A stretch of 64,000 nt of DNA from Nitrosopumilaceae archaeon (GTDB taxonomy: Archaea; Thermoproteota; Nitrososphaeria; Nitrososphaerales; Nitrosopumilaceae): assembly GCA_965207375.1 (NCBI GenBank), contig OZ242274.1, forward strand, positions 1,728,001-1,792,000, given 5' to 3'. Below, piece after piece: positions 40,861 to 44,728 of this stretch. A model generated the notes under the pieces. It saw only the letters and a list, made by a program, of their open reading frames with translations. It did not search any database and was not told where the DNA came from. Both the position numbers and the translations under genes were made by a program. The stretch's first letter is position 1, and the number at the start of each line of letters is the position of its first letter.

Positions 40861-40968
40861 ATGAACCACGATGAGAAGGAAGATCCTGAAATGAAAGAAC
40901 TTGAAAAGGAAGTAGAAAAAGGATTAAAACGCAACAGCATTGTACATAACCTGCTTCATGATCTTTAA
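40861..40968 (+). CDS. Small acidic putative antitoxin (35 aa)
   Basis: MNHDEKEDPEMKELEKEVEKGLKRNSIVHNLLHDL; overlaps the Doc start. Confidence 0.55.
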   Translation: MNHDEKEDPEMKELEKEVEKGLKRNSIVHNLLHDL

Positions 40969-41545
40969 TTCTATAACTCCAAAAGAAATTATCTACATCC
41001 ACAAACTTGTTGAAAAAAGATTCAATTTACCATCTGGTCACATTAAAAACGGCGAACTAGAAACCCTTGTTTCCAAATGCTACAAGATACCATTTGCCAA
41101 AGAACGAACCGATGTCCTTGAACAAGCGGCGATTTTATTTGAAGGAATCATTCGACTTCACATATTCATTGATGGTAACAAAAGAACGGCGTTGGAAACC
41201 ACTCGTGTGTTTTTAAACCGTAATGATTGCATACTAGTAGTACCATTAAGTGGCGCTAATTTCATCTATAAAATTGCACAAAATTGTACTTCAGATACAG
41301 AGCAAATATTGTCTAAAATCACCAATTGGTTGAAATCACATACTGCAAAAAGAAATCAACATTACAAGATAAAGGGATTGTTAATGGTTCACTTTTACCT
41401 GCCACTATTTACAATACGCTTTTTTACAAAAATTAAACTGCGGAGATGTGGCAGATGGATTATCAAAAAATATCTTACGAATAAAGATCCACAGATCACA
41501 GAGTTTATGCTGGAAATTTATGAAAAACAATTAGATTTATTTTAG
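40958..41545 (+). CDS. Fic/Doc family toxin
   Basis: HIFIDGNKRTA Doc-type motif; ATG 40958 preferred. Confidence 0.9.
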   Translation: MIFNSITPKEIIYIHKLVEKRFNLPSGHIKNGELETLVSKCYKIPFAKERTDVLEQAAILFEGIIRLHIFIDGNKRTALETTRVFLNRNDCILVVPLSGANFIYKIAQNCTSDTEQILSKITNWLKSHTAKRNQHYKIKGLLMVHFYLPLFTIRFFTKIKLRRCGRWIIKKYLTNKDPQITEFMLEIYEKQLDLF

Positions 41546-41684
41546 ATTCGTGATTACATTAGATGTGCTTGTTCACTTCATGTCTAATTTTTTAATCATT
41601 ACATCACCCTTTGGGCATAAATTAACTCCCATATGAAAAATCCCTTGGCTACGTGCCGGATCCTATACAGCGTGCATTTGCAGA

Positions 41685-42758
41685 TCAGGACATCTTTGCT
41701 AGGTCATCTAATCTATTATGTTTTCTCTGGGTCAGCTCACAATTCTGTGTTCTGTATTCTTCGTTGTTAGTCAGCATGTACCAAATTATCTCCAGCATGT
41801 GTCGCGCTACTGCAACCTTTGCCTTTTGTGCACCGTGTCTCTTTTTTATTCTCTCGTAGATTCTTTGCATTCTGGGATCATGCTGTATGGTTATTGTAGC
41901 TGCCTCAACTATGGCGTTTCTCATCCATACTGAACCCTCCTTTGTTATTCCTCCTCCTTTGTATGTGGATGCACTGTTACGGTGTGATGGTATTACGCCA
42001 CCTCCTGCAGCAAACTTTTCTGCAGTAGAATATCTTGTAATATCTACAAGCTCAGAAATTATTGTAAATGCTGTAATGTGTCTGATTCCTGGTATCGTCA
42101 TGAGCAGTTTTACTCTATCATCATCTTGTGCTATTTGTGCCATCTTTTGTTCTAGTTTGTTTACCTGTGCAATTGAAGTGTTTATGCATTCTAGATGTAT
42201 GTCCATTGACATGCGGTCTATTTCTGATATTGGCATACTTTCTAACCATTTCATTCCTTTTTTTGTAAACGCCCCATTGGTTGGGCACGTATAGTCATAT
42301 CTGGCAAGTATTGCATGGATTTTGTTTCTATGTCGTGCACCGTCTCGTTTGCATCCGCTTCTGGTTCTGACTAGATTCCTTAGATCTCTATAGTACTTGT
42401 TAGGTACAAAAGACTCGTATATCATGTCTGATTTTAATAAATCAGTTAGTATCTCAGAATCAAGCTTGTCGTCTTTTAGCTTGGCCTGTGCTATTATCTT
42501 CGTCTTTGCAGGATGTGCAAGTATTGTATCTATTCCCTCGTCTTCTAGCTTGTCATGTAATCTTATCCAATAGTTTGCAGTGGATTCACAGACTGCTCTT
42601 GCAGTGTCATTGTATGTTTCCTTTATGTGTTTGATAAAACCTGTTATGCCTTTTGTGTCGTTTGAAAATGTAATCTGTTCTAATTTCTTTTTGCTTTTAT
42701 CATTTTTTATGGTTGCAACACATTGTTTCTTGTGAACGTCTATTCCGATGTTGATGAT
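41685..42758 (-). CDS. IS110 DEDD recombinase
   Basis: IGIDVHK, CESTA, KDDKLDS, TIPGI, GVIPSHRNS, AKVAVARH. Likely starts at ATC after SD GGAGGTGA; the ORF-track ATG 42815 lies in the ncRNA. Confidence 0.92.
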   Translation of the reverse strand: MINIGIDVHKKQCVATIKNDKSKKKLEQITFSNDTKGITGFIKHIKETYNDTARAVCESTANYWIRLHDKLEDEGIDTILAHPAKTKIIAQAKLKDDKLDSEILTDLLKSDMIYESFVPNKYYRDLRNLVRTRSGCKRDGARHRNKIHAILARYDYTCPTNGAFTKKGMKWLESMPISEIDRMSMDIHLECINTSIAQVNKLEQKMAQIAQDDDRVKLLMTIPGIRHITAFTIISELVDITRYSTAEKFAAGGGVIPSHRNSASTYKGGGITKEGSVWMRNAIVEAATITIQHDPRMQRIYERIKKRHGAQKAKVAVARHMLEIIWYMLTNNEEYRTQNCELTQRKHNRLDDLAKMS

Positions 42759-42794
42759 ATCATCACCTCCTTTTTGATCAAAATTTGTGGACTT

Positions 42795-42930
42795 GACCTT
42801 GCGGAATACTCCCATTCACCATTCATCAAAAACGTGGTATTTTGTTGTCCGCTTACTGTGAGCTAGTCTATTACTCACCTTCATACGAGGTATTGTTAAT
42901 TCAGCCCTCAGATCCAATATAATCAGTACG
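42795..42930 (-). ncRNA. Putative bridge RNA (target loop 42856-42911, donor loop 42801-42852)
   Basis: RNA reads CUGAGGGCUG-AAUUAAC-AAU-ACCU..AGGU-GA-GUAAUAGA-C-UAGCUCACAG. Both loop segments match the insertion site AATTAAC-TC-TATTAC. Confidence 0.78.
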
Positions 42931-42981
42931 TAGCCGTAGGAGAAAAATTTTTCATATAACGTCTATTACGTAAACAAGCAC

Positions 42982-43510
42982 GAACCCTTGAGACCTATGC
43001 TGCCATGCGTCGTGTTTCATAAGTTGGCCTAAATGAGCTGATGTCTAATATTGCATCTTGCACCTGCAGATCAGGTGGTATGTCTCTTGGACTTGCAGTA
43101 TAGTACCGTGGCCTTTTTTGATACTACACAAAACTGTAGTGATTTATCTAGTCCTATGATATCACACGTGATAGACACTGCACTCATTTTTTGTCTTCCT
43201 CCAACGTTTTTTTTAAAGCGTCATTTGCCACTGCATACTCTCCTATTATCCTCTTAAGGGAGGAGATCTCTTTTTTGTGACGTTTGGCAAGCGATGATAT
43301 ATCAGAGTCGCTAAATGAGCTTTTGCCTGCTTTTAGGAACTTTTCCTTCCAGGCATAGACTGTTCTTGGTTGCAGGTTGTGCTGTCTGCATAATTCTGCC
43401 ATACTGGTTTCAGAGTTAAAGGTCTGTAACACGATACGTACCTTCTCATCTGTGCTCCATTTTGATTTTTTGTTCATATTTTGTATGGCCTCCTAGCGTG
43501 GTCCGCACCA
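42982..43510 (-). mobile_element. IS3-family remnant: left end TG, orfA (43184-43477), decayed start of orfB
   Basis: KWSTDEKVRIVL...MAELCRQHNL...VYAWKEKF HTH; inserted in the last codons of ahcY; truncated at the MITE. Confidence 0.8.
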
Positions 43511-44728
43511 CTTTATCTGTTCTATTGTAAGCTTGTCGATTTTAACATTTGATGATTTTAATGCCTTTTTGGCTATTGCAGTATCGATACAAGCAGGAAC
43601 TTCAAGAATCTGGTTGGGTAGTTTTTTGTAGTTTTTAAAAAGATGTAAAATGGACAAAAGTTGGTTCGAAAAGGACTGATCCATGACTTCTGGAGGATGG
43701 CCTTCTGTGACTGCAAGATTTGCCACTCTGCCTTTTGATACCAGAAATATCGTCTTGTTATTTATGATACATTTGTCAAGACCAGGACGCATATTTTTGA
43801 CATATTGTGACCTGTGTAAAAGAAATTTTGCATCAACCTCAACATCAAAGTGACCCACATTGCCCACAACTGCGCCGTCCTTCATGGATTCAAAATGTCT
43901 TTTGGAAATCACATTAACCATTGCAGTACATGTAATGAAAATATCACCAATCTGTACAGCACGGTCCATCTGCATGACACCATATCCGTCCATGTGTGCC
44001 TCCAAGGCCCTGATTGGATCGACTTCGGTAACTATCACCCTTGCACCCATTGCCTTGCATCTTGATGCAACACCCTTTCCGACCCAGCCATAACCTGCCA
44101 CAACTACTTGTTTTGCAGCAAACAAAAGATTCATGGCACGAAGATAGCCATCAATCGTGCTCTGCCCTGTACCGTATCTATTATCAAATAGATGCTTTGT
44201 GGCAGCATCATTTACTGAAATAACCGGATAGCGCAGTTTGCAGGAATTTTGCAGTGCCTTTATTCTGTTTATTCCGGTGGTAGTCTCTTCGGTGGCACCA
44301 ATTATGTCCAGATCAGAAAATTCAGGATTTTTATGTATCATAATGCTAAGCTCTGCGCCATCATCAGTTACAATGTCAGGCCTTTGTTTGAGTACATTAT
44401 ACACGCACCAAGCAAACTCTTTTTGTGTCTGATTTGACCATCCAAAAACTGTAATTCCTCTAGATACCAAAAATGCTGCAACGTCATCCTGAGTCGTCAA
44501 CGGATTACCAGCTGATGCAACTACCCTAGCACCAAGCTCTTTTGCTCCAATTAACAGTACTGCAGTCTCTTTTGTCAACTGGAGACAAAATCCAAGCGTA
44601 AGACCGTAGAGCGGTTTTGATTTTTTAAGCCTGTGTATTGTATCATCTAAAATTTTCATATGCGCGCGTGCCCACTCGTAGGATAATTTGCCCTGCCTTG
44701 CTAATTTTGGATCTTTGATTTTACTCAG
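43493..44728 (-). CDS. ahcY: Adenosylhomocysteinase
   Basis: NPLTTQDD, DDGAE, EETTTG, FDNRYGTGQS, GYGWVGKG, GHFDVE, GHPPEVMD. Frame extends to CTG 44728 (SKIKDPKLARQGKLSYEWA). Confidence 0.95.
   Translation of the reverse strand: MSKIKDPKLARQGKLSYEWARAHMKILDDTIHRLKKSKPLYGLTLGFCLQLTKETAVLLIGAKELGARVVASAGNPLTTQDDVAAFLVSRGITVFGWSNQTQKEFAWCVYNVLKQRPDIVTDDGAELSIMIHKNPEFSDLDIIGATEETTTGINRIKALQNSCKLRYPVISVNDAATKHLFDNRYGTGQSTIDGYLRAMNLLFAAKQVVVAGYGWVGKGVASRCKAMGARVIVTEVDPIRALEAHMDGYGVMQMDRAVQIGDIFITCTAMVNVISKRHFESMKDGAVVGNVGHFDVEVDAKFLLHRSQYVKNMRPGLDKCIINNKTIFLVSKGRVANLAVTEGHPPEVMDQSFSNQLLSILHLFKNYKKLPNQILEVPACIDTAIAKKALKSSNVKIDKLTIEQIKWCGPR

Follow-up and report, generated by a model that had tools for sequence, protein, structure and literature searches.

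A probable RNA-guided IS110-family (IS1111-like) insertion sequence of an ammonia-oxidising archaeon and its landing site in an IS66-derived miniature transposon

The closest described systems are the bridge RNA of IS621 (Durrant et al. 2024, PMC11208160; Hiraizumi et al. 2024, PMC11208158) and the seekRNA of the IS1111-family insertion sequences ISEc11, ISPa11, and ISKpn4 (Siddiquee et al. 2024, PMC11187229). In the sections cited here, the left guides of IS621 lie on the 5' side of the loop and read the bottom strand, and the right guides lie on the 3' side and read the top strand (PMC11208160, section 7; PMC11208158, sections 7-8), the left target guide being A50-U58 and the right target guide G77-G80. 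In the IS1111 seekRNA the top-strand match lies 5' of the bottom-strand match, the opposite of the IS110-type ISEc21 (PMC11187229, sections 9 and 12), and the few IS1111 relatives with an upstream RNA region, such as ISMtsp17, are described as a rare exception (section 6). The present analysis covered a stretch of 64,000 nucleotides (nt) from a Nitrosopumilaceae archaeon (assembly GCA_965207375.1, contig OZ242274.1, positions 1,728,001 to 1,792,000), hereafter the window. An insertion sequence of the IS110/IS1111 family occupies positions 41629-42963 of the window on the minus strand (1,335 base pairs, bp, including one copy of its 2-bp core, GA in the sense orientation at 42963-62) and interrupts a miniature inverted-repeat transposable element (MITE). 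It is very probably an IS110-family (IS1111-like) element of an ammonia-oxidising archaeon that moves by RNA-guided, DEDD/Ser-catalysed site-specific recombination. This bridge-RNA reading is supported because the guides covary with target flanks and element ends, the stems of the RNA covary, the recombinase is intact and of the DEDD and Ser kind, and the target is confined to the MITE.

The left non-coding end of the element (146 nt upstream of the recombinase gene; 56 nt follow downstream) would encode a two-module RNA of about 110 nt (42911-42801, minus strand). Module 1, the putative target-binding loop (42856-42911), has an outer stem of CUG.GGGCUG (42911-02) and UAGCUC.CAG (42865-56). 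Its 5' guide AAUUAAC (42901-42895), followed by AAU, is complementary to the sense-strand right flank (GTTAATT); a hairpin ACCU-CGUAUGA-AGGU (42891-77) and GA come next, and the 3' guide GUAAUAGA (42874-42867), followed by C, is identical to the left flank plus core (GTAATA-GA). Module 2, the putative donor-binding loop (42801-42852, minus strand), is closed by GCGGA (42852-48) and UCCGC (42805-01); its 5' guide CAACA (42847-43), followed by AAAU, pairs with the left-end CGTTA at 3 of 5 positions, the hairpin is ACCA...UGGU (42838-18), then GA, and the 3' guide AUGG+GA (42815-10), followed by GUAU, is identical to the right end plus core. The scaffold AAU-ACC...GGU-GA is common to both loops. 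Loop 1 matched the target at 15 of 15 positions (3' guide 8/8, 5' guide 7/7) and loop 2 matched the right end and core at 6 of 6. When the 184-nt non-coding end was shuffled 200,000 times, both guide words turned up together, at any position, in 35 cases. The first-pass annotation of this DNA, made from the letters alone, had read AAUUAAC as identical to one flank and GUAAUAGA as complementary to the core and the other flank, had closed a second loop of the same scaffold with GCGGA/UCCGC and matched its AUGGGA to the circle junction, and had described the fourth guide as fitting in part; all of this was confirmed, and every coordinate it gave agrees with the sequence.

In the proposed mechanism, the right target flank (GTTAATT) would be recognised on its sense strand by the 5' side of the module 1 loop, and the left flank and core (GTAATA-GA) on their antisense strand by the 3' side. 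In module 2, the opening bases of the left end would be bound by the 5' side of the loop, and AUGG-GA on the 3' side would bind the right end and core on their antisense strand. The recombinase would join the excised circle junction (...CATATGG-GA-CGTTATA...) to the target, with strand exchange at the GA core and no target duplication. We infer that the RNA is made and binds the recombinase and that the circle forms; this copy may still be active.

Recombinase homologues were found in 26 of 101 sampled genomes of the same archaeal family, counting the window's own genome (G000), or 25 of 100 without it, and a large protein collection held 411 proteins at E <= 1e-30, whose source, where named, was Nitrosotenuis, Nitrosotalea or Nitrosopumilaceae. 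The flanking DNA of 27 elements from eight genomes of this one family gave 16 lineages with distinct guide pairs after 11 duplicates were dropped; three fragments from the window's genome or from relatives, namely L007 and L014, without module 2, and L070, with an insertion in the RNA and its left flank cut off, stood outside the covariation tests. The two-module layout was kept in all 16 lineages, always upstream of the recombinase gene. Covariation of loop sequence with flank, which the first-pass annotation had asked to be examined, was present, and all four guides and the core changed along with their flank or element end. The 3' guide of loop 1 equalled the 6 nt upstream of its own element at 88 of 96 non-core positions, with per-lineage scores (of 6) of 6, 3, 6, 6, 6, 5, 6, 6, 6, 6, 5, 6, 6, 6, 5, and 4, against an average of 2.76 of 6 for cross-pairs, and none of 100,000 permutations reached the observed sum. 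Words shared by guide and left flank were GTAATAGA in the window, CGTAAGAGA and TGTATGAGA in two lineages of genome G061, CCGGCAGA at four sites of G039, TTACCAGA in G083, and TAAGTAGA, CCAGTAGA, and TGAGCAGA in G065.

Between the 5' guide of loop 1 and the right flank of the same element, 63 of 84 positions were reverse-complementary in 12 lineages (four were dropped because no right end was found, and three guide-end registers were allowed for own and cross-pairs alike), with a cross-pair average of 3.28 of 7 and again no permutation of 100,000 at the observed sum. In loop 2, 64 of 80 positions paired between the 5' guide (the first 5 nt past the outer stem) and the opening 5 nt of the same element's left end (0 of 100,000 permutations), as in TAGTA/TACTA, TAGTG/CACTA, TGGCA/TGCCA, and TAGCA/TGCTA, and seven of the 16 lineages showed full 5/5 Watson-Crick pairing. 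The 3' side of loop 2 (AUGG and core) equalled the right end and core in every lineage. In genome G099 (L073, L074, and L085) the core was AA instead of GA in both loops and in the right end, and the left junction read ...CTTACCAG-AA-GCTATG.

At least 14 different left-target guides were found, each at a matching site, and several single genomes carried differing guides at correspondingly differing sites (G083a/b, G065a/b/c, and G061a/b, and also G099). Different guides at matching different sites inside single genomes are hard to explain otherwise than by guidance. The upstream region could instead be a structured 5' leader that regulates recombinase expression, with the protein choosing the target and the flank matches incidental. 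The start codon of the open reading frame (ORF) does lie inside loop 2, so that the structure could control translation, yet a leader would not change in step with DNA outside the element, as the three guides and the core do with flanks and ends over the 16 lineages, nor would it account for the differing guides at differing sites of one genome (G083a/b, G065a/b/c, and G061a/b), and we regard it as very improbable. With guidance by a bridge-like RNA so favoured, the first-pass annotation's proposal of an archaeal RNA-guided recombinase was supported by the covariation.

In a relative on contig C3 of G039 (L039), a tandem duplication about 100-290 nt upstream of the recombinase gene ran from the left end's first base to the left target guide and core, and the duplicated unit was bounded by two copies of the 10-nt word GACCGGCAGA, one in the flank and one in the guide-coding DNA. 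This duplication fits recombination, or slippage, between a target flank and the guide's own DNA copy.

The conserved RNA structure comprised 20 pairs in four helices, in which 91.5% of 318 cells were paired, compared with 35-45% when partners were slid by 1-3 columns. Changes on both sides were seen at 9 of the 20 pairs, RNAalifold independently recovered three of the four helices, and the subterminal repeats of the relatives also covaried. Single-sequence folding recovered the donor module and missed the target module (loop 1), so that the structure claim rests on covariation among relatives. The stem, internal loop, and stem drawn for the upstream end in the first-pass annotation thus stood in the comparison of relatives and failed for loop 1 in the folding of the single sequence. 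An Rfam search of 41000-43600 at E up to 10 gave four chance-level matches, none of them in the non-coding end 42780-42963, the presence of a bridge-RNA model in Rfam 15 being uncertain. Three extra basal pairs on the outer stem of loop 1 (C-G, U-A, and G-C in the window) were tried and rejected, not being conserved in the aligned relatives. Antisense transcription of the guide-coding DNA was set aside by reasoning only, as its pairing geometry matches neither the published IS110 nor the published IS1111 order.

The element lies within an 82-bp MITE at AATTAAC-TC-TATTAC. The left part of the MITE (41565-41628, plus strand) carries the terminal repeat GTGCTTGTTCAC and ends with AATTAAC (41620-26, the right target flank in recombinase orientation) and the core TC (41627-28); the right part (42964-42981, plus strand) begins with TATTAC, which is the left target flank GTAATA in recombinase orientation, and continues into the terminal repeat GTAAACAAGCAC. 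On the minus strand, the left end of the element (42947-42961) opens with a terminal extension of 4 nt, CGTT (42961-58, right donor), after which comes the subterminal inverted repeat ATATGAAAAAT of 11 nt (42957-47). The right end (41629-41684) is the 56-nt non-coding region, with its subterminal inverted repeat at 41631-41641 and a 2-nt terminal extension GG, and it ends in ...TTTTTCATATGG before the core. In recombinase orientation the left junction reads ...GTGCTTGTTTAC GTAATA GA | CGTTATATGAAAAAT... and the right junction ...ATTTTTCATATGG | GA GTTAATT.... TC stands at both junctions of the filled site (41627-28 and 42962-63), and a single TC stands in empty MITE copies of the same genome, which carry the uninterrupted GTAATAGAGTTAATT.

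The ends and the 2-bp core are real because the empty copies hold the joined site with one core. It is therefore exceedingly improbable that the ends are misplaced, so that the flanks belong to the element and the identity of guide and flank is an internal repeat. Identical flanks are common at site-specific elements and make ends hard to call (PMC11187229, section 13), but for the window this explanation is contradicted by the joined single-core site, and among relatives the four G039 insertion sites have only CCGGCAGA in common upstream and the four G065 sites only GGTAAGTAGA. With the boundaries as placed here, the split of the 82-bp MITE with a doubled 2-bp core, as first annotated, was confirmed.

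A BLAST search with the two flanks joined gave about 25 repeats of 76-95 bp as MITE relatives, all on C1, the contig that holds the window. These repeats had the 12-nt terminal repeats GTACTTGTTCAC and 8-bp duplications, and many carried the uninterrupted ...AAATTAACTCTATTACG.... Ten elements of 1,495 bp in the genome shared the 12-nt terminal repeat and the 8-bp duplications and encoded an IS66-family transposase (NF033517, 214.5 bits), which confirmed the IS66 origin first assigned to the MITE; the target site was absent from all ten full-length IS66 copies. The exact 15-nt target occurred at two unoccupied sites in the genome and at seven sites with at most one mismatch, all inside MITE copies and nowhere in the genome outside the MITE. 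At least three copies of the IS110-type family adjoined MITE sequence, those at 999348-1000409 and 1557219-1557732 doing so at GA|GTTAATTTGT. Because the 15-nt target was found solely in MITE copies, the IS66-derived MITE is, judged by this distribution, a multi-copy landing site for the IS110-type element, as the first-pass annotation had proposed.

The MITE copy in the window had no 8-bp duplication, unlike most copies. Its left arm (41529-41604, minus strand) gave weak Rfam matches resembling C/D-box small nucleolar RNA, of which snoR25 scored 22.2 bits (gathering score 50, E 3.4); this match is probably due to chance, being below any threshold.

The recombinase ORF (41685-42815, minus strand) encodes 376 amino acids (aa) with the domain DEDD_Tnp_IS110 (PF01548, 76.4 bits, cut-off 29) followed by Transposase_20 (PF02371, 70.9 bits, cut-off 21.3), and it matched NF033542 of NCBIfam at 224.2 bits (cut-off 140). 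The catalytic D, E, D, and D and the Ser all aligned with IS621 chain 8wt6_A in the motifs IGID/IGID, CEST/IEAT, KDDKLD/KTDTVD, and NSAS/ESGS (window/IS621), the alignment of the two proteins being weak and partial (E 2.6e-13). Among plasmids searched by tblastn, the best matches were 34% identical and labelled 'IS110 family', and identity was about 24% alike to an 'IS1111A/IS1328/IS1533 family' match and to IS110-like matches. The element of the best bacterial match sat, judged by eye, in an apparent transposase gene of another insertion sequence, and inspection by eye of its ends did not define an RNA. By its domains, catalytic residues, and insertion pattern, the protein is an IS110 family (sensu lato) RNA-guided transposase; the family as a whole is now regarded as RNA-guided, and NCBIfam names NF033542 'IS110 family RNA-guided transposase'.

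The only in-frame ATG of the ORF is the AUG of the donor guide AUGGGA, inside the donor loop. On the unlikely reading that the clade is a distinct architecture of RNA-guided recombination, one transcript would be both guide and message, because the donor guide AUGG-GA contains the recombinase start codon. Four inspected relatives (P0002, P0003, P0009, and P0035) start at MINIGIDVHK, and the window lineage has ATC at that codon. The ATC (window 42757-42815, minus strand) sits 6-7 nt past the word GGAGGTGA.

Several observations weigh against the reading as an RNA-guided element, or against its activity in this copy. The lineages are kin, so that the permutation counts (0 of 100,000 for each guide) are not strict probabilities. 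Right-flank fits were poor in own_B (4/7), G099c (3/7), and G083b (3/7), and the donor 5' guide of the window sets an A opposite the C that adjoins the core. The minimum free energy (MFE) fold of the single sequence was no better than that of shuffles (z-score +0.78), and the proposed fold, at -18.0 kcal/mol, lay 8.2 above the MFE of -26.2. Only one of 14 matching places in the genome was full and open, the remaining 13 being copy B with an internal TGA, copy C, which is split and inverted, and fragments. The ORF is open solely from the ATG in the donor loop, given the ATC where relatives start.

Some of these points bear on the possibility that the family works as described and that the present copy, led into the MITE by its guides at one time, is a fossil that no longer moves, with its recombinase mistranslated or its donor guide decayed. 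The ATC codon fits this, as do the 3/5 match of the donor 5' guide beside the 5/5 of 7 lineages and the genomic copies, which are 95-98% identical, not identical, and mostly fragments. Contigs from four sequencing runs were fragmented repeat contigs in which no joint, circle junction or empty site was seen, which is uninformative either way, as a missing joint proves nothing. On the other side, the 376-aa frame is open from an in-frame ATG with all catalytic residues present, the element has kept both of its ends and both repeats intact along with every target guide, and G066 and G061b share the A-opposite-C mismatch, which may therefore be tolerated. A fossil copy is thus conceivable, with a minor though real likelihood, and the RNA-guided reading of the family applies in that case as well.

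Copy B and solo right-end remnants (369135, 1618048, 702574, and 1969390) adjoined with their right ends the word TTGACCAACAGATAACGCTGGAGAATC, in which a second repeat family with 41 sites on C1 (for example 258149 and 1677448) ends. The left target guide of copy B, CCAACAGA, matched this second family, its actual left flank was TAGACAGA, and copy B has the look of a hybrid or of a rearranged element. Around C1:1682819, a MITE terminal repeat and then ATAATAGA run without a gap into TAACGCTGAAGAATC, which belongs to the second repeat family; this joint could be the left flank of one kind of target and the right flank of the other, left after excision or an element-mediated rearrangement.

A second IS110-family clade was present in four full copies (C1:12525-13592, 875850-876914, 610195-611259, and 1246084-1247148; 366 aa, 31-32% identical), again with non-coding DNA upstream, and with subterminal repeats some 20 nt long (ATG.TAACCACCCC.GCGC). 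One of the four full copies was inserted in a MITE of this same family, some 10 bp away from the site of the first element (GTG^CCTAAAGGG), and end-like remnants of this clade occurred in further MITE copies, for example at C1:484231.

Contig C1, in an assembly of 4.3 Mb, holds a full-length archaeal small-subunit ribosomal RNA (SSU rRNA) gene and an archaeal amoA gene, and the host is therefore an ammonia-oxidising archaeon. The three contigs C2, C3, and C4, outside the window, make up 2.14 Mb, half of the assembly. Their G+C content was 36.7-36.9% versus 38.2% for C1, they held 14 transfer RNAs versus 46 on C1, and they gave no SSU rRNA match. They carried zero copies of the IS110-type element and nearly zero MITE repeats, and they look unlike a cellular chromosome, in an assembly scored, despite these odd contigs, as 99.95% complete and 0.06% contaminated. 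In the window, the neighbours of the MITE were a Fic/DOC-family ORF (201 aa, 40940-41545, plus strand) and an HTH_Tnp_1 ORF (97 aa, 43184-43477, minus strand).

The element is, by its protein, RNA, and ends, an archaeal member of the known RNA-guided IS110/IS1111 kind, whose mechanism is known from bacteria, and there is strong comparative support, from sequences of the 16 lineages, that the mechanism operates in Archaea. The locus and its relatives form a compact natural reprogramming series in one archaeal family, made up of at least 14 left-target guides, a GA to AA core switch mirrored in both loops, and donor guides that track element ends, and they show that an IS1111-type guide polarity is compatible with an upstream RNA. 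The case also illustrates how one transposon's MITE turns into the niche of another transposon. To our knowledge, ammonia-oxidising archaea have no genetic system. These elements are candidates for a programmable integration tool in such archaea, and, if active, the element would be a native programmable integrase for an archaeon without a genetic system and a living archaeal bridge-RNA system bearing on the proposed descent of Nop5 and C/D-box guide ribonucleoproteins from IS110-like elements. The A/T-rich subterminal repeat of the left end (TTATATGA) may act as an archaeal TATA box.

In the literature found, as far as the texts were covered, bridge- or seek-RNA-guided recombination was demonstrated solely for bacterial elements, and no description of an archaeal bridge RNA was found in the literature searched, supplementary tables not being covered. 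In ISfinder, 85.7% of the IS110 and 93.0% of the IS1111 entries have a predicted bridge RNA (PMC11208160, section 12), 32,190 candidate RNAs from bacterial and archaeal genomes were modelled in a 2026 preprint (10.64898/2026.10.21.760802, section 2.4), and 662 archaeal IS110 recombinases have been counted (10.1101/2024.06.21.599552, methods).

Compared with IS621 as described in the sections cited, the element is alike in that the RNA would come from the left end upstream of the recombinase, with two modules of stem, internal loop, and stem, the target loop first and the donor loop second, in that each loop reads both strands around a 2-nt core, and in the conserved catalytic D, E, D, D, and S. 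It is unlike IS621 in that both loops show the reverse guide order, in its core (GA, or AA in one lineage, against CT in IS621), and in its subterminal repeats of 11 bp instead of 2-3 bp. The first-pass annotation had taken IS621 as its model; the two-loop, bridge-type guidance is supported, but the guide order is the opposite one, of the IS1111 type.

As a landing site, ISEc21 uses a conserved part of the transposase genes of the IS3 family (PMC11187229, section 12), IS4321/IS5075 lie in the terminal repeats of Tn21-family transposons, and other insertion sequences lie in repetitive extragenic palindromic (REP) sequences (titles in the reference list of PMC11208160), ISPpu9 being among those in REP sequences. 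The present element is like these in its use of a multi-copy sequence of another repeat or transposon, and unlike them in that the site lies in a non-autonomous IS66-derived MITE, beside its terminal repeat.

Likeness to the IS1111 elements (PMC11187229, in the parts covered) extends to the DEDD recombinase without target duplication, to the subterminal inverted repeats (7-17 bp in IS1111; 11 bp here) with terminal extensions (CGTT and GG here), and to the guide complementary to the top strand lying 5' of the guide complementary to the bottom strand, here in both loops. The host differs, being an archaeon, and so does the non-coding region, which is usually downstream in IS1111 and lies upstream here in all 16 lineages, as is typical of the IS110 type. 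It is unlikely that the clade represents a distinct RNA-guided recombination architecture, defined by IS1111-type polarity, long subterminal repeats, and a 5'-encoded guide RNA with the start codon in its donor guide. As an IS1111-like member of the known kind, the element joins IS1111-type polarity and repeats with an upstream RNA, a combination that is unusual and not unprecedented.

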